Both the position numbers and the translations under genes were made by a program. Of a DNA stretch of 34,299 nt, positions 5,336 through 33,631 are shown piece by piece. Where the stretch lies: NCBI GenBank assembly GCA_016748015.1, contig JAAOMT010000597.1:747460-781758 (forward strand). The letters run 5' to 3'. Origin of the DNA: Geosiphon pyriformis uo1 (lineage: Eukaryota; Fungi; Glomeromycota). The stretch's first letter is position 1. Each line of letters starts with the position of its first letter. A model generated the notes under the pieces. The model saw only the letters and a list, made by a program, of their open reading frames with translations, was not told where the DNA came from and searched no databases.

Positions 5336-5344
5336 TTATTATTA

Positions 5345-5438
<94 letters not shown>
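5336..5438. repeat. (TTA)n microsatellite, about 34 units
   Basis: Near-perfect TTA run with one TCA interruption. It explains the spurious poly-Leu and poly-Asn ORFs. Confidence 0.97.
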
Positions 5439-5882
5439 GTGAAATCATAATTATAAGGCCTAAATAGGTGAGAAAATAATTTTTTCTTTGCATCATCATC
5501 ATTATCGCCATCATCATAATAATCGATCAAGAAATCAACCATTCAACTATTATGAGAACATTAATGCCCGTGCAATGCATGAGAATAAATCATTAAAAAA
5601 GATCAAAAAGTCCTTAGAGACCTGCTTTGCTCGTGCATTATTTCGGATTGTGTTTAAGATTTGAATCGTTAAACAAGAAAAAAAATCTTAATTTGCATAT
5701 TTCATCAATATTATGAAAGAAAGTCTTGAAAGAAGTAATTTCTGACCAACATCACATAAAAAAGGGGATAACTGATAAGAAAAAGAATAGCTGATCATGG
5801 AGGAAAAAATCCGGAACGGTTAGGAGGGATGTTTCTTTTTTTTTAGCAATAATCATCGATGATAGTCGCAAACGCGTGGCCC

Positions 5883-6656: not shown

Positions 6657-6686
6657 ATGGATATTCAAAGTCGAGTTCAATCAAGC

Positions 6687-6718
<32 letters not shown>

Positions 6719-7901
6719 GCATAATATCATGACAAAAAAATTGCAGTCAAATATTACCAGCAGTATCACCACCACCACCATCACTACCACTCCATTAAAT
6801 AATATCGCTGATCAATTTTTGAAATCTTTTGACGTTGGAAACCAAAATTTTTGGGAATATGTCACCAGCGAACTTAAAGACCACCTTAAATCCCTGAAAC
6901 TTTCAAATCAAAAATCCCTCGTCGATGCTTTAAATCATCGCTCGTACAAAGGAAAATTTTTATGCTTACGTGGTTTTTGTTATCAGAAAGGAATCACGAC
7001 GCAGGTCAATTTTGAAAAAGCCTTTGCCTTGTATAAAGCCGCCTCCCGTCATAATCATTCCTACGGTCATATTTTACTTGGACACTGTTACGATCGTGGA
7101 ATTGGAACCGCGAAAAATGCTTCAAAAGCATTTCATCTTTTCAGAAGATCAGCTCAACAAGGTAATCCAAGTGGTCAATTCGAGCTTTACCTTTGTTACA
7201 AGAGTGGCTTCGGAACGACACGAAATGATCGAGAAGCTTTTAAATGGGTTAAAAAATCTGCCGAGGTTGGACATGTTTCAGCTCAACATAACCTTTCGGT
7301 GTCCTATTACGATGGCATCCTGACCACGAAAAATGAAAAGAATGCATTTTATTGGGCCGAGAAAGCTGCCTTGGCAGGACATTCAAATGCTCAATCACAA
7401 TTAGGTTTCTGTTATCAATTGGGAATCGGTGTGGAGAAAAACGAACCAGCAGCAGTCGAATGGTATACCAAATCTGCGAATGCTGGTGATGCTTTCGGTC
7501 GAAAAAATCTTGGAAATTGTTACTTGTACGGTCATAATGGAGTAACAAAAAATGTTGCAAAAGGTTTCAATCTAATTCTACTCTCAGCAAATCAAAAAAA
7601 TGAAGACGCGATCACAGAGTTAGGAAATTGTTATCAAAAAGGTCTCGGAATTCCGGCTGACCTCATGAAAGCTTTTCATCTTTATCGACAAGGAGCTAAC
7701 CGTGATAATGTGACGGCACAATATAATCTTGGATTGTGTTATCGATTTGGTCGTGGTACTACTCTCAATCTTGAACGAGCAAGATTTTGGTTGGAGAAAT
7801 CATCAGAGAAGGGGGACCAAGATGCCATTAAAGAATTGGAAGATATGATTAGTATTGAACCTATCTCTCGTTCCCCGACTTCTTCCGTTCACCTTAAGTG
7901 A
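6657..7901 (+). CDS. Sel1-like repeat (SLR) protein, 414 aa, 8 tandem SLRs, intronless
   Basis: Eight ~36-aa repeats of the type AQxxLGxCYxxGxGxxKNxxxAFxWYxKSAxxG (e.g. HSNAQSQLGFCYQLGIGVEKNEPAAVEWYTKSANAG, NVTAQYNLGLCYRFGRGTTLNLERARFWLEKSSEKG). N-terminal poly-Asn and poly-Thr low-complexity region. Long intact ORF with CpG retained. Confidence 0.95.
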
Positions 7902-10521
7902 ATTTTACGGTACATATATTATCTTAATCTAGTAAAACTGGTGATTTTAATTGTAAATAGCTTTCAAAGTCATAATTCCATCCTTAAATTCAACTAGCAG
8001 TATTTTAAAAAATCGTAATTAAAATGTAATTATTATGCTAATTAAAAATTAATGTCCACTTTTAAAATATAATAAATCACGAAATATTTCACTAAATAGA
8101 TCTTTATTGATCAAAATATAAAAATTCATGCGGGTGCTTAAAAAACTGTGACAAGTTTTCTGTTGACATGAAAACACAATTCTGTTAAGTTCGGTTCTAA
8201 CCAAATCTTTTGTTTTAACAATTCATCTATACAAGACAGGCGCAATTTTCAAATACTTTGGTAAAGTGATAAATTTAGGCATGTGATAATAAATGTAATA
8301 AATATTAACATTTATTGTTTATTGTTACTTTAATATTAATTTAATAATATTTATATTAACAATTATTATATTATTTAATGATACCATTCACAAATAATAA
8401 TGAAAATCAAAATATTTTGTTTTATTTGTATTTGTATTTCCATTTTCGTTTGTATTTGTGTTTGTATAAATAATCTGTGTTTATATAAATATTTATATTG
8501 GTTTTATATTTTTTCAAGTTATTATTTTATTTTATTTTATGTACAATATATTTCTAAATTTTAAATTTATCAAATTAGAGAATAAAAAACCATTTTTATT
8601 TAAAAAAAAATTTATTAACAAATAATATAAAAAATATTTTGCAAATTAAAAATCTTTATCTAAAATGTGTGTTTTCACTTATCATGATCTTTTACATTTT
8701 TTATGAGATTTGCAAATAGAAGATTTTCAAATTAAATTCTCAAAGCGTACATCTAAGCCTATTTCAAGAGTTGGATCATTAAAATTGTGGTCACTCAAAG
8801 TATGTGAGAACATATTTTTAAATAGGTTTATTTTTGTTTCTTTCTTTAGACCCTCTAAAATCGTTTAATGCGTGCCTATTTCTATATGAACTTTAAGAAT
8901 AGTGAACACCCAGAACAGTTTCAACGATCTGGAGGAAAGGGACTAAGGTTGATGTGAAAGAGACTGCTTTTCGTCACATCTAATTCTGAAGTAAGTCAGA
9001 TGGATAGGGTGCGAACGGTCTGATGATTGGATACCATAAAGTTGTCTAACTTATATTCGGACACTCCTTATGATTATCTTAATAGAAGGATGTCAATGAA
9101 ATACCAACTAGCAAGAAAAAATCATCAATGAGAATATAAATTTTAAAGCCTAAAATGTCGATTTTTTTTATGAGGCAGCAATGACGTATATGATCTCAAA
9201 ATATTGTCACAAAAGCAGGATTTACTTAAAAATTCGAATTTAATTTCAAAGATTTTCAAAAAGAATTGAATAACATGGTTAATAATTTTTCCCCAAATCT
9301 TAATTCGGGATCATAAGGCTTATTGATCCAATATTCCTTTTTATGAAATTACAAAATTTTAAGCCAAATGAAAGTCTCTGGCAAAGCCACTTTTTAATTT
9401 GAAACCAATTTTCTCACCAAAAACTTTTGAAGCATCTGATTAAAAAACACAAAATAAGTTTTTAGGATCCCTTTCAAACCTTTTTCACATGCTCCAACTA
9501 CCAGAATCCTGAGTACCTCATGAATTTAAAAATATTTATTAAATCATCGAGTACTAGTGTGCTCTAGGCAAGTTAATCTCGGTTCGTAATTCAATTTCCC
9601 ACGTTCTTCTTCATAGAAACAAACAGACACACAGATAATAAACACAGAAATAGTAAAAAGTTCGAGAATCCAAATAAATCCGTGAAAACCCCCATATCAA
9701 TAACTGAAGCCGTGAGAAATTGAAAAGGGGCCAAAGAATTGAACTTCTGAATATGAAGTACCAGTTCTAAGAGATTTTCACTAGCGAAGCTGTACCCGGG
9801 GAAAAGAAAAAATTCCCTAAAAATGGAAAACACTCCCACATTTTTTCACGTTTTTCAACTTACTAATTAAAATATAAAAATGGAAATATTTGAAATATAA
9901 GAGGCTCTTGAATAAAAAACATTTAGCACATATGCATATATGCATATGTGCATCTATATACATTACGATCTCTTTTATGCAATGTGTTTAAATGATGCAA
10001 GTACAATACAACTATCATAGAATTTACTTTTGAATGCTTTTTCATTGATGTAGATCAGATAATACTTTGGAGAATTGGTATCAACTTGATAATAAATCTA
10101 ACAAGCTTTAACAAAAAAATACATTCTGATAAAAAATTTTAGAGAATTTATTATTTATAAAATTAATTTTGTAAGATTATATTGTTACATATTGAAATAA
10201 TAAGCTATGAATAGCAGGTACAAAAAAACCAATTAATTATGATAAGGTAATCAATAAAGAAAACCAGTCTCAAATAATAAGAGCTTTAAATATAAAGAAA
10301 TAGGTTATGAAGGTTAAATGCAAATAACACAATTTTATGTACTAAAAAATAAATTTTAATTAAAACAATTATTATTTATTTTCACATATTGTGTTTTTAT
10401 AACCAAATTACAAAAATAATTTTATTAAAAAATTGATTTTAATATTTCGGATTTGAAAAATGGTTTTTTTACAATCTTAAAAAAATTGGTTATGTAGCTA
10501 AAAAAATCAATAATTAGGATG

Positions 10522-10611: not shown

Positions 10612-10827
10612 GAATTTTTATTAATTAAATGAAAAACAAATCAATAAATTTTTTTTAAATAAAATCTAATTAAAATACATTAGCAAAACCAAAAATGAAA
10701 AAATAAATACATTAAAAAATAATAATTAATATTAATCAAACTAATTATTTTTTAACAAAAAATTATAAGAGTTGTCCTCCTATAAAGGATGAAAGAATCG
10801 ATACATTCATGCCGGCTGTACAAAGCA

Positions 10828-11490
10828 TTATTTTTATTTGCGAAAACGATTGTGCCTCAATCACTATCTAATGCTATACAACAAACATGTCATAAATTAA
10901 GCTCTTGCTACACGTGACCAGCCATCTGAGCTGATCAAAGCTACACTACCCTTACAGCTTGCTCTTCACACAAGTTGAGTGAAGATTAACAAGCAAAGAA
11001 ACAGAAATTAAGCAATTGCCAATACTTAGACCAAAATGAATAGAGATACTCTTAATGAAACCATCTCTGCACACATCCCCAATTTTTCACACTCAGCCCT
11101 CAATCTGGCATTAGAAATCCAAATTCGGTTCTGATGACTGATTGCTAAATCACGAACAAAACCCAAAACACTGCTGAAAGCCAGACTGGACAGTGAAAAA
11201 ATACACTTAAACACCATACCTTTGGCAAATACTATGTAAATTTTACTACCATCCTTGGCATAATATAATAACTGCAGCACCTAAGAAAAGATTATGAAAA
11301 TACCTGACCAAGACATCCATCTTTGCACACATTCACCAATAATAAGCAACCTCTCAGCCGAATCTGCTGCACAAAGAAATACATGATCCGAATCTTCCCT
11401 CTCTCCGCATCTATTACGATTCAAACTAGGATATTTTGGATTGCACAACCTCTTTCTAGTGACCATTGACACATATTCTATAAAAACGAC
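10828..11490 (-). mobile_element. 5'-truncated non-LTR retrotransposon (LINE): ORF2 C-terminus, 3' UTR and A-rich tail
   Basis: ORFs 11281-11472 and 11026-11280 are one frame split by a single TAG. The translation has a decayed CCHC knuckle (YPSLN[R]NRCGEREDSDHVFLC) and the downstream FAKG...FVR...IW...R..CEKLG pattern typical of fungal LINE ORF2 ends. A-rich tail at 10828-10839. Confidence 0.8.
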
Positions 11491-14169
11491 TTTTAAACAA
11501 GCTTAATTGAAAATTTAAATAATTTTATATTAAAAACTCTTAAAATTAAAAATTATTATTAACAATATATATAAAATATTTTGGCTTTTTTGAATCTTGA
11601 AGCTTCAATTGTTTTTTGAATATTATATTCAAACAAAACTATTCAATTTTATTAATTAAGGATCTTGCGATTTTCAAATTTAAATGATTAATAAACATAT
11701 TACATATGAAACAGTAATATATAAATTTATTTGTGCGAAATTAAATTAAAAATTATTATTACTCATTATTATTTTTCTTCTTGTGAAATTATTTTTGTTA
11801 ATCAAATTATTATTTGGCAAACAAAAACAGTATTTATAAAATCAAATTAATTGATTATAGTTATTAAACTAATAAATAATTACAGTTATTTTAACGACAA
11901 CTAAACAAATTATAACCAATATTTTATACTTTATTAACTTGAAAAAATTACAATCTTTATTTGGATAATTTATAAACCTTTAAGTCAGATATATTAAGAT
12001 ATCACTAAAAATTTGGCAAATTTCCAATTTATATATTAAAAAAAAGCTAAATTATCAAAAATATGTATCAATATTGATTTATTCACTAATAACAATTAAT
12101 TCTTATTTATTATTATTATTTTCTAATAGTGTTGTTCTAAGTTTCAAGCATAATCTATTATAATCGAAAATATGTTATTTTTTAATTTTTTTAATTTTAT
12201 CTAGTTTTAATATAATTAATTAACATAAATTAATAATATAGTATTAATAATAAAGATTAAACTAATAAATTTACAATTATGTAATACATTATCAGATAAT
12301 AAATCAACAAAAAAATTGATAATTTTTAGCCAAAATTAATATTTATTACTAATTACAAGAAAACAATTTCAACAAACTAAACAAAAGTAGTAAGATTATT
12401 TAATAATTCTAATGTTAAATTTTAATTAAATTTGTTTAAATAAAATATTTAATGATAAAATTATTTCTAATAATTAGTTTTATGTTTTTAAGTTTTGTAT
12501 AAGCTTTATTTTAATTAAGTATAATCTTATCAAGTTTTACATTGTTTTTACTTTTAAAAATTAAACTAGAGATTTGATTTATGTATTTTGTACATGTAAG
12601 CAACTATCCAAATCTAAGTTAATAAATATTTATCTATCTTTAATACCAAAAATTTCTAATACTTCTATTTTACCAAAATAGTTTTTAAACACCAAATTAT
12701 TATGGATATGCTTTTACATCTATTTTTCATTGTTTTCTTACAAAGCATAATCTTCTTTTTTAGTTATAATCTATACATTATAATTAAACACTATTAGTAT
12801 TAAAATAAGTCTTTCTTTTATATTTAAACTAATTACAGTTTTTAAATAAAGTATTAAACATTTAAAAATATGTTTAATCTGATTTTTAAAAAAAATAAAA
12901 TGTTTTTCTATATTTATAATTAAATTTTATTTAAGCAGGCAAAAATTGAGTCATTAATTAGCATAAAATTACTCTTATAATTCCTATTATTAATTAACAT
13001 AAAATAGTGTTTACCCATTATATAGTTAATAATCTGATTTATATGATACACAAGTATAACTAAATTTAATGATCAAATCATGCAATATTTCAAATTATAT
13101 AACATATAAAATTTGTTGAAATATTTAGAAGTTCAATAAAATATTCAATAGTTTACCAAAATAACTTTAAGTTTGCTAAAAAAATATATATAAAGAAGAG
13201 ATTTTCTTTTCGAGAAAATATATTTTAGTTCAGTTTAAAAGCAATTAGTTATTACTAAATAATAAAATAAATCTTTATTTGAAAAATTAAAAACCAATTC
13301 ATAATTATTCTCTTTGAATTAAAAATTCTCAATTAATACTCTAAAATTGATTAGCTACCAATTTTAGCAAACCAAAATTGGTTTTTTTACAGGTTTGTAG
13401 AAAAATGTTTTTTGTCTAACAATAATTATTATTATTATTATTATTATTATTAATTTATTTTCTTATATTATTAAAGAGCCTACAATCGAGATTTTTTTTA
13501 ATTAAGTTTATTGGCATAGAATTAGTCATTCTATTATAAATTTAACAGCATATACAGTTCAAAATATAGAGAAATACTTTGGAAATAAATAGTTTATTAG
13601 AGGTTTTATAGATTTTATTAACAATAGAATTAGCAGTAAAATTGGCATTAACAATATTGAAGAAAATGACTAAAATTTTTGATAATAGCAGCCACAAAAA
13701 AAGTGATTAAATTTACCGAAAATTAAGTTTTATAGCAAACAAAATTTATAACAAACAAATTCTAAATTTATATATTTTATTAAAAAAATTATTAAAAAAA
13801 CTAAACAATATTAAAAGAACAACAACTTTAACATAAGATATTGAACTAAAAAATTAACTAACAATAACTTTGAATATTACAAAAGTTTTAAAAAACTGTT
13901 TTAAAAGACCAGAAAAAACAGCTTTTAATTAAAAACTAGGTAATTTAAACTCTAATATTTTTAAAAATACTAATATTCAAAAAATTTCTATCAAATAAAA
14001 CTTTTATGTAAAATACTAGTTTTAATAATTGTCTTATTAAAAGTTTTTTTAAATCTAAAGATGGCAATAATAAATTATTAAATAATATTTGATATTAAAA
14101 AATTAAAAAATAAAACAAGTTTGATTATCAACTTAAAAAACTAAATTACTAATTTCAAAAACTATAAAG

Positions 14170-14375
14170 TTAGTATTATGAACTATGTAAACTAACAAAG
14201 AAAACAATAGCAAATTAAGTTTAAAAACAAAAAAATAATATAAAACAGTTAAATCACAACTAATATTAATTTGATTAAAAAACTGGATTAAATCCAACTG
14301 TTCTTTTTATTTATATTTAAAAAGTAGTAAACTAATTACTAACCAAATTAGTAAGCTAACTCATAAATGTTTTAA
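14170..14375 (+). repeat. Diverged direct repeat, copy 1 (copy 2 at about 16530-16735)
   Basis: 14275-14365 aligns with 16631-16718 (ttaaaaaactRgatta...tttttatttatatttaaaaa...taaaYtaatt..taacYaaattaRtaaRctaaYtYata). Differences are mostly transitions. Confidence 0.75.
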
Positions 14376-14418
14376 ATTTTTTTAATTATTTATTTTCGCA
14401 TAATATTTTTTTTCAAAT

Positions 14419-14549
14419 AATATTCTCGGGTGGCTGGTCACATGTAGCAAATGCGTGATTCACGTCTAATTTAGAACTCTAGATAGTTGTATCGTATTAG
14501 ATAGTGATTGGGCCTCGCTCGTAAATGCAAAGAAAAAAAAAATATTCTC
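14419..14549 (+). mobile_element. 113-bp retro-insertion (LINE 3' tail or SINE-like) with poly(A) and 9-bp target-site duplication
   Basis: TSD aatattctc at 14419-14427 and 14541-14549. The body 14428-14540 ends in gcaaagaaaaaaaa and is homologous to the LINE 3' UTR at 10836-10930. Confidence 0.8.
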
Positions 14550-16529
14550 TCAACAGATTGGATTTGTTTAAGTATTAAGTATAAAGTACTTGAATTAAGT
14601 TGTAGATATTTGTTATATTCTTTGCGAATTTCCAAATATTTTATTTGTCTTCTAATTTAAAATTTTGTCAACTTTAAACTTAATACTATTTTCAAGTTTA
14701 ATAAATAGAGATAATTTTTTTATTTGCTCAACTAAGTTTAAATTATAACAAAATTTTTATAAAAAATGTGAAGAACTTTATGAATTCTAAAATAGACTAG
14801 CAGTTTAACTTGTAAATTACAAAGTTAATCTAATAAGTTATGTAAAATAAATTAAGCTTTTTATAATTTAATTAATTTAAAATTAAGTTGTTTTAATAGT
14901 GTATTACAAAAATTAAACTTAATCTATTTTAAATTTGAATGCTTTTTAATAAAATTTATTTATTCTCTTGCATTTATTAATACTATTTTTGAATTTTTAA
15001 CAAAATTCAAAATAATAAATAAATTTATTTTCAATTTTTTCAGATATTTATAAAAGTTTTTAGCTTCAAAAAATTCTAAATTAAACCAATTAGAAGTATT
15101 TTATTTTTTATTAAGTTAATAAAACAATTATATAAATAGTATTTTAACAATAAATTAGCGTGTTTTTATTAAATATGTTAGCTATTTTTTATAATTGACT
15201 AATAATTTACAATTATTATAAAATTTTGACTTTTATTAATACATTAAAAACAGTTTTAATAAACACAACTTTTTTAGAATCTTTTGATTAATAGATATTG
15301 ATAATTCTAAATATATTAGAAAATATAATAATATATATTTTCTAATCAATTAATAAATTATGCAATTGCAGTCAAAATAATTTAAAAACAACAACATATA
15401 TAAATTTTTATTAATATTACAAGTAATTTTTTTAATGATTAACAATAGTAAAAATTATTTATTAAATTTTCTGTTTAATATTTTCTGAAAAAATAAGATG
15501 TTTATTAATGACTGTTAATAACATAGGATAGTGTTTTATAATGAATATAATATTATGTTAATTTACAAAATTTTTATTTATAAAGTAAAAAAGTAGTATT
15601 GAAATCAATTAGTGCTTTTATAATTATATTAATATTAAACTTAATAATTTGAATTTTAATAATATAATTAAATATATAGTTTTATTTTATTTGAACTTAA
15701 TTGTTTCTTAGCAAAACTGCTAAAATTTTATTAACTGCTTTTATTAAATAATAACAAACAATATAATTTAATTTTTTATAACATAAACAAAAATTATTAT
15801 TATACTAACAAGATTTTTTGGCTTTTATAAAAGATTTATAATAACTTATATTAATTTATATTAAGTTATTCTAAAAATAAAACTAATAATTTACTGTTTA
15901 TAAAAAATTAAGTAAATACAAAATTACTTATATAACTTTAAAAATATTATTTTTTATGATTTATAGTTAATTATTATAATTAACTATATTTTTAATAATT
16001 TTATTCAATATATTAGTATTTATTAAAGTTATTAACAAGTTTTGAACATTATTATGCAATTCAAAACAAAATTAATCATTTTTTTTCAATTAATATTATA
16101 CATAATTCTTAAAATTTTATAATATATATTACAATAATTCAATTTTTGTTAAAAATAACATAACTAATTAACCAAAATCTGAGTTTTGTATATATTTTAA
16201 AATTTTATTTTAAAATTTTTACAATAAAAACAATCTTTAATTAATAATACAAACTATATAAAAATTATATCTTTAAATAATATATTAATTAATATAATTT
16301 GATTTGTATTATTTGAATAATTATAAGATTAAAGTTAAATAATAATTTAAAACTAATTTATAAAATTTTAAAACTTAAAAGATTATTATTAAACTTCTTA
16401 AATAAATTATATTTATAAAAAAATATTTTTTAATTAAATATTTTTTTGTTAAATTATTTATAATATTTTAACAATTTAAGCAAGATTAGTTAATTTTAAA
16501 AACATATTAAGTAATGAAAAAACAGCAGA

Positions 16530-16735
16530 TTAAATTGTTATAAACTATATAAATTAGTAAAAAAAACTATAATAATTTAAATTTAAAAACAGAAAAAATA
16601 AAATAAAAAGTTAAATTATAATTAATCTGCTTAAAAAACTAGATTATATTCATTTGTTTTTTATTTATATTTAAAAAATATAAATTAATTGTTAACTAAA
16701 TTAATAAACTAATTTATACATATTCTAAATAGTTT
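16530..16735 (+). repeat. Diverged direct repeat, copy 2 (copy 1 at about 14170-14375)
   Basis: Same alignment as copy 1. This copy carries T or A at most of the transition differences. Confidence 0.75.
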
Positions 16736-18899
16736 TAATTAACAAAATAAAAAATTTTAATATTATACTTTATAATTAAAATTAATTAACAAGCAAAAAT
16801 AGTTTTAACAACTTAAAATATATTATAATTTATTATTACAAACCAATAAATTTTAACTTAATACTTAAAATTTATTAAAAATACATAAAATATTTTTGAT
16901 TTGTTAAAAAAAATGTTCATAAAAATATTATATAATACTATAACAACAAAAACAAAAACAAAAACCATAAAAGATTTTGTAATTTTAAGAAAAAAATTTA
17001 GCAAATTTAATTCTAATAGTAATATCTAAAAAACTTAAAATGTAAATTCTATATAAAAAACTTGATATTTTTTTAGCAATTAATTTTAAATCAATAAAAT
17101 TATAGAAAAACTAGAATGTTATCTTAATATTAACTTAACTTTTACAGTTTTATTAAACAGCAAAATAAAAATTATTTATTCAAAAAATTTTTAATAACTT
17201 GTAATTGTATTTTCTAAACATTATTAAAACCAACAGTGTTTTTAAAAGCAAAAAAAAAAAATTTAATTTTTATTTTATTAATCCAATTTTTAAAATTAAA
17301 TAACTTAATAAATTAATTTATTAAAATTATGTGTAAAAACATAATTAAAATTAACCAAAATTTAATTATATATTAATTCAAATTAGTTTTGGCAAATGTT
17401 TTATTACTATTATTATTTAAAATAAAAAAAAAGTTATTTTTTACAATCAAAACAAAATTAAATATCATAATTAATGCAGTTAAAATAGAATTGGTAAAAA
17501 CATTAAAAAACTAAAAAAAGCCAAAAAAAATTTGTTTGTCAACAGCTAAAAATTGTGTTTTTATTACTTAAAAAAAGCACTTTAAAAAAATGCTGTCTAG
17601 TTATTTTTATTTTTAAAAAAGCTTTTTTAGTGTTAATAGAAAAAAAAACTTGTTTTTTTTTACTTTTTGTTCTAAATATAATTATAAAAAGATTTTACTT
17701 TATTATTTTAAATAAATATCAATTTAAATAAATTACTATTTTTTCATTTATTTTATAAATTTATAGCTTTAATCTTAGCTAAATTAAAAATATGTTAATT
17801 GTATTGTTTAAGTTATTCTGAATTTAACTTTGTTGATTTTTATAGCTTTTCAAATATGAATAAATTATTAATAATTTTATCACTTAATTTTTAATTTTTA
17901 AAACTGTAAAAATACATTAACAAGTTTTGTAATTTGTTTTAAGAACTAAGTTTTAATAAGAATAATATTTTGAGATTTGTTATTTAAACTATATAATTGT
18001 ATTATCTAAGTTTAATGCTTAAATTTTTTATTAAATTGCAATTTTTTATTTCAGTAATTTACAATAATGAATTTGCTTTATTTTTTAAAATATTACTTAA
18101 TTTTATTTATATGTTTTCTGATTTTGCTATTTAGTAGTTTGTTATATCAATGTATATGTTTAAATTAAAATTAAAATTTTGAATTTATTTTGCTTGTTAA
18201 AATATTACAACCAAATTAAACAAACATTTCGTCTTTGTGTAAAATTAAATATATATATTTTTTATAATTAACATTAAATGTAGCATTTCTGAAGTTTGGA
18301 ATTTTTTTTGATTAATTTTAATGCAAAACAAAAAGTTGTTATTAACTGTAATATTATTTAATCCATTTAAAAATACAATGTTTTTAAAAAAATGATTACA
18401 ACAAAAAATATTTATTTGTGGTACAAAATTATTTTTTTATAAACTTATTATTGCAATAATTATATTAATAAAATTTGACTAAATAAGTAAAATATTTTTA
18501 ATTTTACACATATTGAATCATTTTTATTTGTTTTCAATATTTTCTAATTGGTTTTAGATAATTTATTTTGTTCAATAATCAATACTTGAATATTAATCAA
18601 AATTTTCCCAAAAATTGGTACATAAAATCTATTTTTTTATTAGTATTTAGTATTTTTTCAATTTTAATTAAATATAAAACTGATTTTGCATTTATTATTG
18701 GAAATAATTTAATTTTTTACTGAGCTATTGTTAAACTATTTTTTAAGACATATCATAATATAACCAAAAAATAAAATATATTCATTGAGAATTTATTCAT
18801 CTTTCATGATTGTAATTTAAAATTATAAATATAATTAATTACAATCCAATGTAATAATTATCATATTTGTAACCATATTTTATTATAACTATAATTATC

Positions 18900-20780
18900 A
18901 GATCTCAGTTTGTACATTTCATAATTGAAAATGTTTAAGTCATTTCAACAATTGTAGCGTTCCTTGAATCCTGCATAGTGACTATCAGTAACTGCGGATG
19001 TCATATTCCAATTAAGAAGAGTTAATCTCTTTCTAGAAATAAAATTGGAAATGAGTTCGACACTAAAAATGTCCTGCACTCAAAATGTACATTCCTCATC
19101 CTTTTTGTGTTAGAACTCATGCTGTAGATTGATTTAAGACTGATATGGTATTAGCTTCGAGTATTCTCATACCTTTCACAAAGATGTGTTGTCAGCATCA
19201 TTCCTTTACAGAATGGTTCCCAAATACCTACTTTATATGGATCATGAATCTAAATTTTCAACCTTAAATTAATAGTTGACTTTAACCAATCAAAATGCTA
19301 TCTGCATAAAATCAAAGCCATTTTATAAAACTTTGGCAGAGTACTATAAACCCTTTAAGGATGGGCTTTACTTAAAATAAATGATTCCTACAGACACCGT
19401 TTGAAATTTTAGGTTGCAATTGTATGAGTTAATTCTAAAGTACATCAAATTTTATTATTTTAAATATCTAGCTTGTTTATACTTAATGACTTCGAAGCCT
19501 TAAATCAACTATCTTTTGCATTTTTATCTTCCTTGCACCTTAGAAATAGCAACTCGCATTTCCTATACTAGGTAAAATCTATGGGAATTCAAAGAAGGAT
19601 CGACTTTCAAACAAGGGATATAAGCAATTTGAACAACACTGTTGTGGTATGGTCGCGATACAACAAGGCTGACATTTCTGCATTGAGAAAAAATAAAATC
19701 TTGGGGTTTTGGCTCGGTATCAAGATGCGTCCAAATAGCAGAGTTTTCCCGTACAATAAAGAGTTGCTTTTAAGCCCTTTTTTCTAACCCTAAGCAAAGT
19801 ATTAAAAGGTATTCAGTATTATTAAGAATAACTGATTCTAATTCGTATTCTGCTAAGAAATCTTCTGGAAGAATTTGTCCTGAATTCTCTTATCTCCTAA
19901 AAACTATTCAAACTCGTGCTGTTCAAGCTTTGGCGTAAAATTTTTAAAATTCTCAGTTTCGTAAAAATTTAAATTTAAATCTAATGTAACACACGGGATG
20001 TTGAAAATATTATTTCGGCAACTAGGCTTGCTGCATGTCTCAACTGACCAACAAGGTTTGGATTGTCAATGCATAAATGAGCGATTTAACCTGATCCGAA
20101 TTTCTATGATGCTATCAATGCAGTTGCACAAACTCTCTGATTAATGGCAGATTAATACAGGGGAAGCTCAGCAAACAACAATGCTAGTGTCCATTCTAAG
20201 TATGACTCGATATTTCTAAAATGTCAAAAAAGGTTCAACCAGATTTTGTTATTAGTTATGGTCCTTTTGAGATAACAAAGTGATAGTTGTTTACGAATGC
20301 AGGAAAATTAAAAAACTTATGAAGGTACAGGAATTGATTTTTAAAACAACGAATAGGGACTCTTGTTTAACTCTAATTTTAGCAAGGTCTTCTAAACTTA
20401 AGACTTTTTAGTATCAAAAAATTTTCGGCTTTACCATTTTAGAAATAAATTTTTCGCTCTTAGATCTTTAATTTGTTCAATAAATTTTGAAATTGTGAAA
20501 ATTGACATATTAATAGTTTGCCATATTTGGGATTTATTCTTCCAATTAACTCAACCGGCATTTAGCTATCTTGAAATTGAAATAAACCCTTGTTAATTAT
20601 TTCATAAGACAACACCAAACCTAATTAGATTTTAAATTCTGATGTGTCCAAGCTTATATTGAACTCATTAATTTCACTTATCTATTATCATCTAAAATTT
20701 TCAGCTCACAATTTGTATTTCCATAAAGATAATGAGGTTTTCAAAACGATTTATAGCTTGTGAATTTAAAGCATCTTCCA
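18900..20780 (-). pseudogene. Degenerate protein-coding relic of unknown family
   Basis: GC-elevated island. A minus frame at about 19880-19565 gives ~105 codons with one internal stop (ENSGQILPEDFLAEYELESVILNN...LFIVRENSAIWTHLDTEPKPQDFIFSQCRNVSLVVSRPYHNSVVQIAYIPCLKVDPSL). About 20220-19985 gives RNIESYLEWTLALLFAELPLY*...DNPNLVGQLRHAASLVAEIIF. A pyrimidine-rich, leader-like tract lies upstream on the minus strand (20950-21020). Confidence 0.4.
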
Positions 20781-21423: not shown

Positions 21424-23016
21424 TTAACGCCAGATATCTTTAACAAATCGATTAAATTCATATTCTTCGGGAGATTGTGTTAAAGTAAAAGGGTATTCAC
21501 CATCAAGATCTAAAACCTTTTCCAAATCAACCATCGCTTCGGTATATTGTTTCAAACCATGATACACTTGTCCTCGTATAGCAAGAGCGATGACATTCAT
21601 GTCATCAACATGTAAAACCGCATTCAAGTCATTCAATGCTTCCTTATGGCGATCAAGCTGTCGATATACGGCGGCACGATCGCATAAAGCAGAGATGTCA
21701 GAGGAATTAAGACGTAATCGGCGATTCAGATCTAACAGAGCTTCGGCGTATCGATGTTGTTCTCGATAGACTTCACTTCGCATTTTGAGAGCTGATAAAT
21801 TTTTTGGATGACGTCTGAGAACTGTGTTTAAATCCGACAAGGCTTCATCATATCTTGAAAGTAGTGTGTAGATATCAGCACGAAGATTCAATGCTGAGCT
21901 ACTGGTTCTGGTTCTAATTGAAAGTACTTGATCCAAGTCAAGTAATGCCTCGTTATATCGGCCGAGCTTATACAAAACACCGGCACGAGTTTCGAGGGTT
22001 GTACCGCTTGTTGGTCTTTGTTTCAAAGCATTGTTTAAGTCTTCTAAAGCATCTTTGTAACTTCCTAATTTACAATAAACTTCACCACGATCACGCAAAG
22101 AATAGGCGTCATTTGGTTTCGCTTCCAAAGTTTGATTAAGATCTGTGAGGGCATCCTGGTATCGATTTTTTGTTCGGTAAATTTCACTACGTTCTTTCAA
22201 TGCATTGGCGTTTGTAGAATCTCGTGATAAAACACAATTTAGATCAGCCAGGGCTTCATCAATACGATTCAACTTACGAAAGGCAGCACTTCTAGTCTCA
22301 TAGGCACTTAAACTCTCTGGTCGAAGTTCTATTGATTTATTTAAATGCAATAGGGCATCTTCAAAATTTCCCAGTTTCATATTGATCTCTCCCAAACGTC
22401 GAAGAGCAAAAGCGCTATCAGGTTCAATTTCTAAAGATTTTGATAAATCTTCTGCTGCTTCTTGAAATAGGCCTAATTTTTGGTATACAGTTCCCCGACC
22501 ACGAAGTGCAAATGCATTATTCGGCTCAACAACTACTGCTTGGTTTAAATCAGCCAATGCTTTGTGATACTGATTCATCATTCGATAAATCTCTCCGCGA
22601 CCACGCAAGGCGAATGCATTATTGGGTTCTGACTTCAGGACGACGTTCAAATCATTGAGTGCCTCTTGATCTCGGTTCAACATACGATAAACCTCACCCC
22701 GATAAGCAAGTGCCGATACATTTTCGGGCTTGAGTGCAAGTAATTTTGTAAATTCAGATAAAGATAGTTTATAATTTCCTTGTTTTCGATAAACTTCAGC
22801 TCGAATTTGAATTGCTGCTGCGTGTTTAGGGTCAATATCGAGTGCTTTGTTAAGGGTTAAAAGGGCTTCATCAAACTGATGTTCTCGTCTAAGCTTCGCA
22901 CCACGAATTGTTAAGGAATTTACTTCTTCAGTTGGCGATGGATCACTACAAATTGGACATTTTTGATGATTTATGCATGGTTTGGGGATGGATTGTTTGT
23001 CAGAAGCGCTATTCAT
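21424..23016 (-). CDS. Tetratricopeptide repeat (TPR) protein, 530 aa, 14 tandem TPRs, intronless
   Basis: Fourteen consecutive ~34-aa repeats with consensus AxALxxRGEVYRxLxRYxEALxDLNxxLxxxPxN. No catalytic domain. The frame stays open for 33 codons upstream without an ATG, so a spliced 5' exon cannot be excluded. Confidence 0.95.
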   Translation of the reverse strand: MNSASDKQSIPKPCINHQKCPICSDPSPTEEVNSLTIRGAKLRREHQFDEALLTLNKALDIDPKHAAAIQIRAEVYRKQGNYKLSLSEFTKLLALKPENVSALAYRGEVYRMLNRDQEALNDLNVVLKSEPNNAFALRGRGEIYRMMNQYHKALADLNQAVVVEPNNAFALRGRGTVYQKLGLFQEAAEDLSKSLEIEPDSAFALRRLGEINMKLGNFEDALLHLNKSIELRPESLSAYETRSAAFRKLNRIDEALADLNCVLSRDSTNANALKERSEIYRTKNRYQDALTDLNQTLEAKPNDAYSLRDRGEVYCKLGSYKDALEDLNNALKQRPTSGTTLETRAGVLYKLGRYNEALLDLDQVLSIRTRTSSSALNLRADIYTLLSRYDEALSDLNTVLRRHPKNLSALKMRSEVYREQHRYAEALLDLNRRLRLNSSDISALCDRAAVYRQLDRHKEALNDLNAVLHVDDMNVIALAIRGQVYHGLKQYTEAMVDLEKVLDLDGEYPFTLTQSPEEYEFNRFVKDIWR

Positions 23017-24852
23017 TAAATCTGGATGCTGTATTTTAAGGTATAGAGGGAAGAAATCGAAAAGGTTGATGGGTTGAATATTAATATCATTAAAAATAAT
23101 TATGTTTGAATGCCGTTAATATAGGTGACATCTATGTGTTATCTCATAGTGAATAGCAGTGAAATTAGAATTAAAAACTCACGTTCACAATCAAAATATC
23201 CATGCTTCTATTTTCTTTTCCTTCTGCTGTCAATCTTTTTGCAGGTTTTTTGCTTTCACACTGAGGAGTTTATAAAAATATTCCAGATTTTATCGAGTTT
23301 GCTTAAACTCTTTTATTCTTTTAAATCTTCTGGTTTACAAGTTCTCTTTTGTCACTTTTACGCTTTTTCTTTTGTCGAAAGTTCAATAATAATAAAAAAT
23401 ACATAAATTTCAAACCAGGGCTGAAACATGGAGTATGCTATATATGATTGTATAAAAGCCGTAGCACATTCGGAAAAGGAAAGGGCACCTGTTACTCCCT
23501 AATACTATTAAGAATAACAATAAAATGATAGTATAATATTGTACTGATATTTGATCGTCTGTATACAACTAAAGGTCAAATGACCCCTGGAATAATTCAA
23601 GATGCATTTTTTATAAACACGACTCGTCACGATTGACAATGAGATTTGGGTTAATAAAGGATATCTTGTACTCTATTATTGTAAAAAGTAAAGGATATAT
23701 GAAGAAACAAAAACGTTTTTTACATCCCAACAAAGAAAATGCTCTAGTCAAGTCGGATTTTTTGTGGTACGAGAATCAAAAAAAGCTTTGACGTTTGGCA
23801 AAACTGGCGGGAATTTCGGAGTGGTTAGAATCATTCCATGAGAAACGATGCTAAGCAATTCCGGAATAGTATGAAAAGAACGAAGTCAAAAGATTCCTTT
23901 CGTGTATTTCCTAATTAAAATCGACTATTTTAAAAACAGAAATCGAAGATTATGTCATTCTCTTGAGATTTCTTGTATTTGGTTGTGGGTCTTTTATTTT
24001 TGGTTGTCCGATTTGGAGCTCAATGGTTTAACTTCGGTAATTAGGATTTCCAATGCTGAATTATTTTGACATGCTGAAAATCATGAATGAATAAAATATT
24101 CTACAGTGACCAACATTTCTCATGGCATGTGTGAAATAATAGCTTGTGAGCTAAACATTGTTCAAAAATTTGGCGATCAAACGTTTTAAGCAAAGATGTG
24201 CGTGATACATAACAAAAAGTAAACCTTAATATTAAGGGTAAATATAAAATCACAAAATATTTTGATAAAATAATTTCAATAAACAATGAGAAAAAGCTTT
24301 CAATCAGATATAATTTGACATCATAATAATAGAAAAATCATCATAAATATAAATACTCCATAAGATAAAAAAACATTGAATATTTTAAATTCTTTTATAT
24401 TAAGAGAAAATAATAATAATAATTATAAATAAAATAAGTGAAATAAAAATAAAAATAAATAAAGAATTTCTGTTTTTTCAAAGACAACAATTAAATATTA
24501 AGGTGTTATTTAAATAATTATAAAAGATAAGGTAAAAGGGGGTGGCAAAATTAGCAAAATAAATCTGCGTGTGTGAAAGTATGCCGTTTTCTCACTTGTA
24601 AAAATGGGATTTTATACTCTTTTATCACAACCCATCACAAATTAAACTTCGCCACAATATTTTTAATTTTTACGCTATATTCTAAATAATATTTTTATTT
24701 GTGAACGGTTTTTATAAAATCTTAATAATTCTAGAATGTATTTTCGCGATAAATTTTTTAAAAAGTCAGACTTAATTAAAATAGAAGCTTTTAAATTTCT
24801 CTTAAACAGTTTATAGATATTTTGAAAAACGTGACAGATTAGATGTGAAATT

Positions 24853-25674
24853 ATTTTTCAAAAATTTCAAATTGGAATAAATTTCGTTGAATAGATTTTG
24901 TTGAGAGCGATTTAAAGCACCTAAAGGACGTTCTCGAGTTCATTGATTAAAAGGATTCTCAATTGCAAGAGATGTGGTTGAAATCTGAATTAATTGAGTG
25001 CACATTGCTTCTTGTTGATGTGGAGCCAAAAGTTGATATGTTGGATTTACTTCTTCAAGCAATGGATCCAAACTTGGAATAACTGTTGGAATATTAGCTT
25101 CAGGATTAATCATTGTAAAAATACGATTTGTATTTACTAGATTCCAAAACTAGTATAGATGAACGATTAGCAAGCTCTATTTTTCGAAGATGTGCCTGTT
25201 CATTATAAATAGTCTTTGAAATTGCATGTTGTTCAAGATCTTCCTGTCGTAATGCTGTTAAAATTGCCTTTGGTACAATGCCTCCACTTAACATTTGTGA
25301 AACTAATACTTTCTATTTGGATTTAAGTCGTCGAGCAGCAGGATGTCCAGCAATATTATCAGATGGCTCATGATTATGTTCAGCATTGTGAATTGTTAAA
25401 TACCAGCATTCATCAACTTTGAGTAATCATCCATATATATAGTAAAAGGGCAGTTTGTTAATCGAGTTGCTGTTTTTCGTTGTCGATCTTCTAATACAAG
25501 TCTTTTAGAAGCATTATATTCATTTCCCCGATTACATTTGAAGGTAATATGAGTACCATTAGCAGCAGAGCATCATTTTGTAACTACATATCCTTGGGAG
25601 TATGTAAAGGTGTTAAAACATTGTATTATCATCTCACAAGAGCTATATGATGTTTCTGGAGGTGGTAACATCAT
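24853..25674 (-). mobile_element. Mutator-like (MULE) transposase pseudogene with FAR1/WRKY-type N-terminal domain, internally deleted
   Basis: From ATG 25674: MMLPPPETSYSS...SQGYVVTK*...FKCNRG...RKTATRLTNCPF...WYLTIHNAEHNHEPS...HPAARRL...KTIYNE. Stops at 25573, 25427 and 25313 and a +2 (TA) frameshift at about 25433-25441. The C-terminal TRERPLGA (TRGRPxGA-like) and IQRNLFQFE (TxRDPSxFE-like) motifs follow with no DDE core in between. Confidence 0.85.
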
Positions 25675-25869
25675 ATGAATATAATCTGTAATTTTATAAA
25701 AAGATTTAATTACTTGTAAAATCAAAAGAAAACTTATTAAGTTTATTCTAGAGCTCTTTGATTATAAACTCGTTAACATGTTCCTATATATAGTTGAATA
25801 CGAAACTATGACGTAAATGATATCACATGTTGCGGGTGGGTCGATTTAGCAATTCCCTTATTTTATAAT

Positions 25870-27560
25870 ATAAAAATGTAAAATTAATTCAGAAATGGCA
25901 AAAATCGGTTACACAATTTATAAATATGGTACTTGATTTATTTCTATATATTTATTTTAAATGTTAAAAAACAAATAATATTTTATAATTATAGTTACAA
26001 AAATGTAAATTAAAAATTTAAAATGAAAATTTAAAAAATTTACAAAAGCAAATATTAAATTTTGGAAAAGTCTTAAAAATTTTATTAATTTATTATTTTT
26101 TGATTTAAACTTAAAATTCTTCAAGTATAAATTAAATTTTAAAAGCTTTTTATCAAAATTTTTATGTTAACATTTAAATAAAAACTATTAAATTATAAAA
26201 AATAGATATTAAAATTACAATTTAATAATAATATTATTATTACAAAGTAAAAGTCTTATTAAAGTAAACTAATAAAGATTAATCTAAAAACAAAATAACA
26301 AAATTAAAAATAAGTAAAGTAAAAAAAGAATTAATTAATATTAATTAAATTAAAATGGTTCGCTAATAATAAAGCAATTATATATAATTAATTAAGAAAA
26401 TAATCATGTGTAATTAATTAAGGAAATAATTAAAAGTATAATGTTAATTAATTATAAAAAGAATAAATTACAAAGTAATTAATAAGACATATTTTATTTA
26501 TTTGACAAATAAAAAATTTCAACAACCAATCTTTAAAAATAACATTTGAAATTAAGAAATAGTAACAAATAATATTAATTACAACAAAATAAATAAATAA
26601 TAATAAAAATTTTAAATTTTTACTATGTTATTATATTAATATTAATATTTGTATTTAATTATTTTAAATATTTTATTAGTCATATAACATTTAAAAGTAA
26701 ATTGTAAATATATTATATTAGCTCATTAAGTTATGTAATAATTAAATATTAAATTGTTTCTACTTATTGTAGTGTTATTTTAATATTACTTATTTACATC
26801 ATATTATTTAATTTCTTTATTTTTAAATTTTGTTGTTAAATTGATTATAATTGTTAGCTCTTTTTTATTAATATATAAACAAAAAATTTTAAAACTTTAA
26901 AAACATTTTATAAATTATTAATTCTTAATTAATTATATTTCAGTTAAAAATTTACAAGACTTTTCTTAAATCGATTTACCTTTTTTTTATTTGTATTGAT
27001 TAAAATTAACTTGAAAAATAAAAAATTTGCCTTTATAACTTATCTAAATAAACAAATTTAATATTATCTAACAAAATTTAATTTTAACAGTTCTTATACT
27101 TAAAACAAAAATTAAACGTAAAACAAAAGTTTATATTTTTATAGGTTTTTTTAATAAAACAAAATATAATACTTACAAATTAACAAATTAGTTTTTTGCT
27201 TTAAGATGAAAAACAAAGAAGACTTCAAATATTTTTTTAGTATATATAACTGTTTTATAAATAATGGTTTGCATTAAGCTAAAAATAGATAAAACAAAAA
27301 TTAAATATTTCGATTTTATTATTGTTTATTATAAATGATTATTAAAACTATTTTAACAACATTTAATTGTATATAGAGATTAACATAAATATAAGATGAA
27401 AAATTTACTTTTTTTTGTTTTTTATACATAACATAAAACAATATATTAGTGTAAAATTATTATATATAAAACTTTTTCATTTTTTATCAATTTAAATCAA
27501 ATCAAATACAACTAAAAGTCTATCTAATAGGATTTGTTTTCAATATTTTCAAAGCAGATT
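25870..27560. repeat. Extreme-AT block, probable decayed repeat
   Basis: No ORFs, very low GC, and the same dinucleotide bias as 11500-18850. Confidence 0.45.
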
Positions 27561-27599
27561 TAATTTGCAGTTTTGTTTTTAATTCACATTAGAAATAAT

Positions 27600-28310
27600 T
27601 CTGTTGACCAAGGAATTAACAACCAAAAAGTAACTCTTACTCGAATGAGAGTAAATTTTCTGTTCTAAAATTAAACAAAATTACTAAGCTACGGGTAAAT
27701 ATTTCATATATATAAAAAAACTACCAATTACTATGTCAATGTTCACACAAGTTTAAAAGCAGAAACCTGTTAAATAAAACAGATTTCGTTTTAGTAATAA
27801 CTGAAAAAACTTTATTTTTGGATTAAACAGCATTTCAACTGTTCCCAGACGCAATAGAACGTAGTAAAAGAAAAAATGGCCAATTCTTCAAAAACAAAAA
27901 GATCATACAAAAATTTTTGCATGAGTGTTTTTGTATGGAGAAAAATCAGCTTATTTATTTTCGACCTATCATAGATATTAAGTTTTATATAGACATTTTG
28001 CAACAGCATTTTGAAGTTAATGGAGTACTTTGGAAGAAGTGGTACTTTCAATAAAATAACGATCCCAAGCATATAAGCCAAGTAGTTAAGACATTTTTTG
28101 CAGAAAAGTTATTGACTGGTTGTTGTGTAGTCTAGATTTAAATCCTAGTGAAGATCTGAAAGCAATTTTTAAAAGTAAAGTAGAAAACAAATGTAAGATA
28201 TGGTTAAGGAATGAAATTCTTTGCCAAAACAATGCTAATCAATTTAATAAATTCAATGTTGTGGGTTGGGAGTTGATTATCCAGTGTAAAGATGAAAAAA
28301 TTGCATAATA
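27600..28310 (+). mobile_element. Tc1/mariner (DDE_3) transposase pseudogene
   Basis: Motifs in the expected order: KTLFLD*TAFQLF (~27806-27844; FSDE), KIFA* (W of the WG motif), KFYIDILQQH, WYFQ*NNDPKHIS (~28040-28078; QDNDPKH) and VIDWLLCSLDLNPSEDLKAIFKSKVE (~28108-28185; WPxxSPDLNPIExxW). Multiple stops and frameshifts. Confidence 0.9.
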
Positions 28311-28429
28311 AATTTTTTATTAATAAAATCAATGACTTTTGGCATTTGTAACAATATACAGGTATTAATTGTACGGTTCCGTGGAACTGTCACATACTGT
28401 ATTCCAGAATATTTCTTTTTAAAAAATGT

Positions 28430-30700: not shown

Positions 30701-32559
30701 AATTTGTAGTTAAATCACTTATAGAGTATTATCCATCGGAAAAACAGCAAAAAGAATCATTAATAATTATTTTATACTATTTAAAGATTATATTACTACT
30801 TAGCCAAATATTATTTTATCGTAATTTATTTTAAATAAAAATTTAAGAATCAAATAAATTGCCAAAGTTCAAATGCTAAGAACCTTTGAAAGTTAATTAA
30901 ACTAATTTAAAAATATTTTTAGTTGGAATTTTTTAAATTTTATTTTAGCTTCAGATTCAGCTTTTAGATTTTAACTACATATTTAAACAATTGCAAATAA
31001 GCTTCTAGAAATGTAACAACACAAGAAAATTAAAACCATTTCTTAAGAAAGAATTACTAAAAATCCCAATATTTTGAAACAAAAACATACAAACATTATT
31101 ATTAGTTGAAAAAGACCATTTGGAAATTAACTTAGTATTTTAATTTCACAAATTACAATTCAAATTAATCTTCAAAACTTACACCTCTCGAAATTATCTG
31201 ATGCAATAAAGGTGTATTTCATTACTACATAATTAGTGAAAACACTAAGAAAAAAATTCTGTAATAGTAAGATTGGCCAAGTGTGGTCATATAGGCTTTA
31301 AACTTGAAATTCAGCAAATTTAATATATAAATTGTTGAAAAATTGGCATAAATTTTGTTAAAATACATAAGAAAAGATTTTTTTTTCGGAAAAAAGAGTC
31401 TATAGAACTAAAATTTTGATTAAATAATTTAGAAATTACTAGCACCCAAGTTATGCTCTACTATATCGGTTCAAGAAATATTTTATCCCTCTATTGCTTT
31501 GATCACTATAAGAGCTATCTCCTTTTGAATTTTCAAATATTGTCTATAAAAAATTCATTTACTTTTATTCATCTTCATAAGAATAGCTGACAAGTGTTTG
31601 ATTTCCCTTTCAGACCAATGGGTCGTGTTTCCAACTGGTTAACCTTTAAACATGAGAATAATCTCTTCATTTTTTATTATTACATCTACTAAATTCCAGT
31701 AAGAATCATGAAGCATATTTTAATTTGCAAGATCTTCCAAAGGCGGCATGAAAAGAAGCAAAAACTCAGTCCAGAATATTTTTAGTATCAATGAAACTTT
31801 CTGTGTGTATGAGAAAGGTTTTAAAAAATGTCAAATTCGATAGAATGAATGATTCTATTTATATTAGCCAAAAATAGAAATTTGATAGATTATTTTAGAG
31901 TCACATGGTAAGTTTTTCTCTCTGAATTAATGACCATCCAATTGGGTATTTGTAGATTTTCTAATGCAAATTAAGAATCAAAATATAATTAGAACATTGA
32001 TATAATTTTTTAGAATTAAAAATTTTAGTCTAATAGTTTCAATGATATTAAACCTCTTCTTAAAGTAAACATTTTAAGCTCTATTACTTTAGCCAAGTAA
32101 AAAAAAACCAGTAGATGAAAACATAATCTTACAATCACAAGAATTAATGACCAATAAATCATTATTATTGTTATATATGTACAATTTCATTAAATTTAAA
32201 AATTTAATTGTTTTACTGTACATTTTTTAAATATGAATTATTCTATGAATATTTTAATTTAAGCTTTAAAAATCTATTAAAAATTTGTTATAAAACACAA
32301 TATTAAATCTTTTTCAAGTAAATGAAAAATTTATTATTAATATATATTCCATATGAGTTTTTTAACTATGAAAACAGAAAACAATTCAAAAAAATTCAAA
32401 GATCATATTGTTATAGTTGAATCTTTTAGTTTTTAGTTATATCAATTATCTAATTATAATTAGTCACATGTATTAGCCACCATATTTTTTAGAATTTGTT
32501 GTTGATGTGATTATTGACTTGATCATTGACTAAATCATTAATGTAATTACTGATTATTG

Positions 32560-33596: not shown

Positions 33597-33600
<4 letters not shown>

Positions 33601-33631
<31 letters not shown>
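33601..33631. repeat. (TAA)10 microsatellite
   Basis: Perfect TAA run. Confidence 0.95.

Follow-up and report, generated by a model that had tools for sequence, protein, structure and literature searches.

In fungi, described processes that remove cytosines from repeated DNA differ in the sequence context they attack. Repeat-induced point mutation (RIP) of the Pezizomycotina produces C:G to T:A changes on both strands of duplicated DNA, prefers CpA, and leaves sharp AT-rich blocks beside intact genes. APOBEC3-type deaminases and ultraviolet (UV) damage favor cytosines that follow a pyrimidine (YpC, as opposed to RpC, where the 5' neighbor is a purine). The Dim2 mutator of Zymoseptoria tritici, as described in the accessible text of PMC8016269, introduces non-CG C-to-T changes confined to repeats, of which more than 98% are at CpA, and leaves AT-rich remnants of transposable elements (TEs) without a need for meiosis. 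Hypermutation of TEs in Pucciniomycotina is raised by a 5' T but is given as strictly TpCpG (PMC3318451, accessible text), and CG-methylated TEs, e.g., those of R. irregularis and G. margarita and, according to the accessible part of PMC6980582, of Tricholoma, decay at CpG. Here, a stretch of 34.3 kb of the genome of Geosiphon pyriformis (Glomeromycota; contig JAAOMT010000597.1, positions 747,460 to 781,758), hereafter the window, is compared with these systems. The window has 24% GC and contains two intact genes, encoding a Sel1-repeat and a TPR protein, and long blocks of extreme AT content, in which cytosines have been lost preferentially after a pyrimidine. This pattern is real, strong, and confined to the blocks. 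It resembles methylation-linked or RIP-like repeat decay, but it lacks the CpA preference, the TpCpG restriction, and the CpG dominance of the known systems and, hence, can be equated neither with classical RIP nor with hypermutation at TpCpG or simple decay of CpG. The bias likely records a repeat-directed process of methylation and mutation.

Since transitions leave the purine/pyrimidine class of a base unchanged, cytosine retention was expressed as C/(C+T), separately for purine and pyrimidine 5' neighbors, with each base counted once; an odds ratio (OR) above 1 means better retention after a purine. Block limits were taken from a two-state segmentation of the window. A reading of the sequence only had treated 11500-18850 as a single interval; the segmentation resolved it into two blocks with a less eroded island between them, and it added two further blocks:

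11503-14424, no strand: eroded block 1, GC 0.161, class-level OR 1.75
14634-18898, no strand: eroded block 2, GC 0.129, OR 2.64, with a peak in 15000-18000 (OR 3.06)
25858-27508, no strand: eroded block 3, GC 0.125, OR 2.25-2.33
28408-30947, no strand: eroded block 4, GC 0.164, OR 1.80-1.84

In the four blocks together (11.4 kb, 14% GC), 1013 C and 4249 T follow a purine, and 630 C and 5482 T follow a pyrimidine. The retained fraction is, thus, 0.19 after a purine versus 0.10 after a pyrimidine (OR 2.07, 1.86-2.31; p 1e-41), and the two blocks of the originally noted interval give an OR of 2.16 (p 1e-29). The bias is present on each strand, with 0.209 and 0.180 of the cytosines kept after a purine and 0.109 and 0.092 after a pyrimidine. 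It becomes stronger toward lower GC (Spearman correlation of GC with log OR, -0.67 in 68 windows), and within the blocks the OR climbs with erosion depth, from 1.75 at 16% GC to 3.06 at 12%.

Raw dinucleotide counts tell a similar story. The hand counts of AC+GT versus TC+GA from which the bias had been proposed proved exact (13 vs. 2, 16 vs. 5, and 14 vs. 7 in eroded DNA, and 10 vs. 21 in ordinary intergenic DNA), and the bias is retained in full counts, with 502 vs. 343 in 11500-18850 (p 5e-8) and 196 vs. 97 in 15000-18000. In 28430-31000, the raw counts of AC and TC (165 vs. 146) do not differ significantly, whereas the class-level ratio is significant there. The ratios of observed to expected counts (O/E) in 15001-18000 are 1.9-3.0 for GpC, 1.2-1.3 for ApC, 0.56-0.67 for TpC, 0.40-0.64 for CpC, 0-0.26 for CpG, and 1.1-1.2 for CpA, in agreement with the proposal that CG is nearly absent, GC persists, and CA remains common. 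A near-absence of CC, also proposed, applies to this core but not to 12001-15000 and 18001-19000, where the O/E of CpC is 0.7-1.1.

A C-to-T process with context-dependent rates on both strands was fitted to the trinucleotides counted in the four blocks, given their purine/pyrimidine pattern. The model started from three assumed ancestral compositions and ignored transversions, indels, and back mutation. Under the three ancestors, a single term for the class of the 5' neighbor raised the log-likelihood by 62, 70, and 48, compared with 14, 16, and 8 when all 3' rates were freed, and the fitted ratio of YpC to RpC loss was 1.96, 1.79, and 2.34. In the full model, the rate after a T was always high (1.37, 1.72, and 0.86 vs. 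0.75, 1.14, and 0.35 after an A), and that after a C was so under two of the ancestors, with the third leaving it uncertain. A 3' A had a factor of 0.70-1.26; thus, CpA loss is not raised, and RIP-type CpA indices in the blocks (substrate 1.05, product 1.04) indicate no CpA depletion either. The factor for a 3' G, 1.03-1.94, is a loose estimate, as few CpG survive, and suggests a modest boost. The near-absence of CpG would largely result from the fact that either its C or its G can be lost, with this boost in addition. By composition and by these fits, loss after T or C is shown to be about twice that after A or G, with little influence of the 3' base. The proposed preference for a 5' pyrimidine, without direction toward CpA, is, thus, upheld at about two-fold, both by the counts (OR 2.07) and by the model (1.8-2.3).

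The two intact genes served as unbiased controls:

6657-7901, plus strand: Sel1-repeat gene, intact
21424-23016, minus strand: TPR gene, intact

Together they give a class-level OR of 0.99, with AC+GT vs. TC+GA at 271 vs. 395. The contention that neighboring genes are spared is, thus, supported, and it extends to ordinary non-coding DNA, of which three sets have ORs of 1.09, 1.11, and 1.00 and the raw counts are reversed (522 vs. 637 and 223 vs. 284). Lightly eroded element remnants in the window reach a pooled OR of 1.13. Intact copies had been expected to lack TC/GA depletion, and this was seen in other families of long interspersed nuclear elements (LINEs): the near-intact metagenome LINE L001 has an OR of 0.92, and L005 and L009 together 0.87. 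The segmentation also delivered six short low-GC segments, of which an ATT microsatellite was excluded and four others were pooled as a GC-matched control (1341 nt, 12.5% GC). Their OR is 0.95 (0.69-1.31; z 4.5 against the long blocks), or 1.06 if most of the sixth segment is added. Low GC by itself, therefore, does not give the bias. Homopolymer slippage was rejected as a cause, as the bias survives capping of A/T runs, and so were tandem repeats, of which merely 10 short rows were found. A gain bias such as AT to AC was rejected by argument, since it would be expected in ordinary non-coding DNA as well. The non-coding region 31000-34299 (24% GC) has a CpG O/E of 0.31-0.35 (31001-33000), yet its class-level OR is 1.00. 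This hints that CpG loss and YpC loss are separable and that there may be two layers of methylation.

Repeat status was directly seen for about one fifth of the block length, in two pairs of paralogous segments:

14022-14388, plus strand: first copy of paralog pair A, the less eroded of the two; aligned by blastn with 16386-16741 (score 163, identity 68.8% over 369 nt)
16386-16741, plus strand: second copy of paralog pair A, with heavier erosion; 12 C-to-T and 10 G-to-A changes vs. 2 and 3 in reverse
16922-17690, plus strand: first copy of paralog pair B; runs parallel to the minus strand of 29291-28643
28643-29291, minus strand: second copy of paralog pair B; collinear with 16922-17690

The core of pair A (14174-14388) contains 27 transitions, 9 transversions, and 169 identities in 216 columns, and the gappy alignment of pair B (16922-17466) contains 86 transitions and 56 transversions in 592 columns. 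The scoring in these alignments favors transitions, but pair A was also found by plain blastn. That the copies differ mainly by transitions fits the proposed erosion by C-to-T and G-to-A changes on both strands. The claim that the loss is restricted to repeats holds directly for the fifth of the block length with visible repeat status; the other four fifths are presumably repeat-derived. A weak third pair, 10177-10270 and 33030-32936, scores 28-30, near the noise ceiling, and one of its copies is far richer in GC.

The locus shares with the Dim2 mutator the concentration of non-CG C-to-T changes in repeat regions, as far as repeat status was seen, and differs from it in that CpA is unfavored and it is the 5' neighbor that carries the bias. 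With RIP it shares both-strand transitions in duplicated DNA (27 vs. 9 transversions in pair A) and sharp AT-rich blocks beside intact genes, but not the preference for CpA. As in Pucciniomycotina, a 5' T raises the loss, but TCA and TCT are affected here (0.12 in TCA vs. 0.22 in ACA; 0.10 in TCT vs. 0.17 in ACT), and CpC, including CCT, is depleted too. No context is rarer in the blocks than CpG, as in CG-methylated TEs; nevertheless, CpG decay explains little, because it cannot create a bias by 5' class, and freeing the 3' rates gained only 8-16 log-likelihood units vs. 48-70 for the 5' class. Finally, the YpC preference (1.8-2.3) is reminiscent of APOBEC3-type and UV signatures, but it is strand-symmetric, confined to regions, and only about two-fold.

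Several lightly eroded remnants lie next to or between the blocks:

10828-11478, minus strand: LINE-like 3' remnant with reverse transcriptase (RT) and RNase H, lightly eroded, GC 0.38, OR 1.10 (not significant)
14425-14545, plus strand: less eroded island; repeats the terminal ~100 nt of the LINE remnant and has an A run behind it
24900-25700, minus strand: broken open reading frame (ORF), lightly eroded, Mutator/FAR1-like candidate, GC 0.34, OR 0.96
27780-28400, plus strand: broken ORF, Tc1/mariner-like candidate, GC 0.29, OR 1.46 (p 0.04)

The LINE remnant has 83 related proteins at E<=0.001 (26-47% identity; RVT_1/RNase_H in 8 of 13 scanned), with a profile match at 11472-11023 (110 bits). 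The island is an inverted copy of its end, 10828-10930, located at the end of block 1, and probably represents the 3' terminus of a LINE-type element. Judged by eye, the ORF at 24900-25700 may be Mutator/FAR1-like, Pfam being blank there, and the one at 27780-28400 may be Tc1/mariner-like, again by eye and unconfirmed by Pfam.

All 19 members of the LINE-related protein family that were looked up are from G. pyriformis. As codon structure fixes the context, the bias could be scored from substitutions in columns with at least 12 sequences, a modal residue above threshold, and a locally well-aligned surrounding. Of 4058 departures from the modal residue, 2412 are of the C-to-T/G-to-A type, with equal rates for G to A (0.168) and C to T (0.165), 0.02-0.04 for transversion controls, and 0.18-0.32 for G to A in contexts that are never CpG. 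When V>I/M is left out, columns of the YpC type changed 1.36-1.42 times as often as those of the RpC type (p 6e-6 to 9e-4); including it lowers the ratio to 1.19-1.20 (p 0.005-0.04). As the copies share ancestry, both sets of p values are too favorable. Outside the searched region, H>Y/P>S changes are more than twice as frequent with a preceding pyrimidine (0.23) as with a preceding purine (0.10). These sequences can be read as reflecting pervasive non-CpG erosion with a weaker bias of the same direction, mostly TpC. Thus, the anticipated dependence of consensus-polarised changes on the 5' base is seen in these proteins at 1.2-1.4 times, with two contrasts, V>I/M and M>I, going against it. The looked-up proteins among P0121-P0203, annotated as hypothetical proteins of G. 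pyriformis, resemble eroded LINE copies dominated by C-to-T and G-to-A changes, and gene models of this kind may inflate the gene count of the species.

The reading considered best, with a probability of about 0.45, is that an enzyme of the DIM-2/DNMT1 type methylates repeats outside CG, with a preference for a 5' pyrimidine, and that deamination follows. The blocks are likely old transposon copies, parts of which occur more than once and vary mostly between C and T or between G and A. A predicted methyltransferase of the DIM-2/DNMT1 family would act on them outside CG sites, preferring a pyrimidine at position -1, and the methylated cytosines would then likely become T by deamination. As both strands are hit about equally, it would act on chromosomal double-stranded DNA after insertion, not by editing of cDNA, and the confinement to regions suggests targeting through chromatin, i.e., heterochromatin and 5-methylcytosine (5mC). 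Mutation may be either passive or promoted by the enzyme, as in the Dim2 mutator of Z. tritici. That the pattern is mutational is well supported by composition and modeling and modestly by the LINE proteins.

Candidate enzymes are on record. The clade of the arbuscular mycorrhizal fungi (AMF) is said in the accessible text of PMC8298701 to keep DNMT1, DNMT5, DIM-2, and RID, which conflicts with PMC5751038, where the part available gives RID as documented in Pezizomycotina only. TEs of Phycomyces carry 5mC in CG and CHH (H, any base but G), and its genome encodes DIM2 and DNMT1 (PMC11258239, in part). The target of the enzyme appears to vary by species: the accessible text of PMC8016269 describes mitotic non-CG C-to-T changes in repeats at CA for Dim2 of Z. 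tritici and a preference for CT for DIM-2 of Neurospora. In the structure of DIM2, an arginine is wedged beside the -1 base, where the DNA is deformed; the flanking preference is left open in the portion available (PMC11315935).

Several observations weigh against this reading. The ancestral composition in the fits is an assumption, as alignments did not reveal the element family of the blocks. Over both paralog pairs, the ratio of sites with C kept in both copies to sites with C kept in one is 17/61 when a purine precedes and 7/33 when a pyrimidine does, an OR of 1.31 that is not significant in this small sample (p 0.64); pair A contributes 8/17 vs. 2/9, and pair B, 9/44 vs. 5/24, has no difference by itself. 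The bias in the LINE proteins (1.2-1.4 times) is weaker than in the blocks. Among their changes, V>I/M, which corresponds to ApC, is as frequent (0.22) as D>N/E>K (0.23), with the reverse I>V also high (0.14), and M>I, with 25 observations, is opposite in direction. Furthermore, the Dim2 preferences described in the available text of PMC8016269 are 3' ones (CA and CT), and the AMF methylomes reported, as far as their texts are accessible, show methylation at CpG, whereas the fits give this context a boost of no more than 1.0-1.9 times.

Alternatively, there may be no dedicated system, and basal YpC-prone mutation, whether spontaneous, oxidative, UV-type, or due to poor repair in late-replicating chromatin, could be clearest in old, unconstrained sequence. 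The smooth growth of the bias with falling GC and its mild form in one remnant with light erosion (OR 1.46) are consistent with this possibility, as is the excess of double changes at Gly codons in the Geosiphon LINE proteins (54 vs. 30 expected; Ala control 31 vs. 29), which tandem CC-to-TT mutations would yield. However, double changes at Pro codons do not clearly exceed expectation (15 P>F, compared with 23 expected over all doubles), and a genome-wide bias, which would then be expected, is absent from ordinary non-coding DNA (OR 1.0-1.1) and from the short stretches of 12.5% GC (0.95); basal mutation is, therefore, considered unlikely to suffice. True RIP, triggered by homology, dependent on RID/Masc1, active in a cryptic sexual stage, and with its target moved from CpA to YpC, would account for both-strand transitions in duplicated DNA, the unequal erosion of copies, and the sharp block edges, and RID is listed for the AMF clade (PMC8298701, accessible text). 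It is quite unlikely, given that CpA is not depleted (indices 1.05 and 1.04; 3' A factor 0.7-1.3), that RID is documented in Pezizomycotina only (PMC5751038, same limit), and that, in the accessible part of bioRxiv 2021.03.30.436303, no RIP signatures were detected in G. margarita or Mucoromycotina.

APOBEC- and DddA-like DNA cytidine deaminases prefer TC or CC and depend weakly on the 3' base. Recruitment of such an enzyme to repeats would, thus, fit the modeled context. It is nevertheless improbable: the strand asymmetry of cDNA editing is absent (12 C to T vs. 10 G to A in one copy), and a two-fold preference is weak for these enzymes. Fungal deaminases like OTT_1508 of Neurospora edit A in RNA, as stated in the part of PMC12754623 available. 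A further explanation, that RpC was abundant in the elements from the start and that context-free erosion kept this skew, draws on the failure of alignment attempts to name the ancestral family and on the fact that two blocks share sequence and, therefore, are not fully independent. The related elements provide no sign of such a skew (OR 0.92 for L001, 0.87 for L005 and L009, and 1.13 for the lightly eroded remnants), and the OR increases with erosion depth inside the blocks, which makes inherited composition very improbable.

A full-text literature search, thin on subscription papers, yielded no report of YpC-biased erosion in Glomeromycota. In the accessible text of bioRxiv 2021.03.30.436303, 5mC of R. 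irregularis was called with a CpG model; a 2026 preprint on the G. margarita genome used CpG tools and never mentions CHH or RIP. An AMF-wide TE survey does not mention RIP, deamination, or AT-rich DNA (PMC11952901), and a kingdom-wide k-mer screen found repeat-enriched k-mers almost only in ascomycetes, the string 'glomeromyc' being absent from its main text as far as available (PMC12543289). No 5' preference was seen in the accessible parts of the reviews PMC13297926 and PMC7862722, and nothing on sequence context was found in that of PMC11381340. It is possible, but can be put forward only tentatively, that Glomeromycota, or an early-branching part of them including Geosiphon, possess their own repeat-directed mutator, a functional analog of RIP that targets YpC instead of CpA, operates although no sexual cycle has been observed, erodes transposons until 10-15% GC is left, and escapes both RIP indices built on CpA and methylation calls made at CpG only. 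In the texts accessible, AMF have no reported RIP signature and encode DIM-2 and RID without a stated role; erosion outside CG with a 5' bias would give these enzymes a testable job. Two long-read AMF methylomes were, according to the same partial sources, called at CpG only; non-CG erosion also predicts the outcome of an all-context methylome. The question bears on how transposons are disarmed in the large, apparently asexual AMF genomes and on the AT-richness of these genomes. The class-level statistic of C kept after a purine versus a pyrimidine is alignment-free and applicable to all public assemblies.

Attempts to name the element in the blocks remained at noise level, both for erosion-aware profile alignments with the 83-protein family and L001 (11-22 vs. 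13-20 in the null) and for DNA alignment of the LINE remnant with the blocks. The idea, formed by eye, that block 1 continues the minus-strand ORF of the LINE was dropped. Pfam found no families in 24 read-through frames of 23100-34299, a word-based homolog search with the LINE piece gave no matches, and purine 3-periodicity was uninformative. A metagenome scan for the LINE returned nine loci, with one long match (34% identity). L001 (1-3391), from a metagenome contig, belongs to the same broad group; it is a near-intact LINE with RT and RNase H, 46% GC, and a long reading frame split over two frames.

In run X1, 14 contigs matched the region of the LINE remnant, one of them, possibly the source of this DNA, across its full length. 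In contigs of four runs, no paralog of at least 80% identity to 10800-11500 was found, except over 10904-10949. The latter segment is multicopy: 10 of 17 pieces (three runs), among the matches listed, cover this motif alone. The motif, of ~45 nt with a CACGTG core, is located at 10904-10949, close to the 3' end of the LINE remnant, and at 14426-14451, is multicopy in runs X1, X2, and X3, and is comparatively GC-rich beside a heavily eroded block. A pattern search for the LINE end motif found no stretches in viral contigs. Similar words, CACATG, lie at several edges of elements. GC drops from 38% to 16% within tens of bases at the upstream limit of the LINE remnant (11480-11503), which may mark the boundary either of an insertion or of an erosion domain.

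The closest named matches of the TPR protein are proteins of Gigasporaceae (34-46% identity), and neither it nor the Sel1-repeat protein had an exact match in the protein collection searched. The excluded ATT microsatellite lies at 5336-5456 (121 nt, 3% GC), and shorter AAT/ATT runs are located at 6683-6720, where they encode poly-Asn in the Sel1 gene, at 13425-13473, and at 33601-33631.

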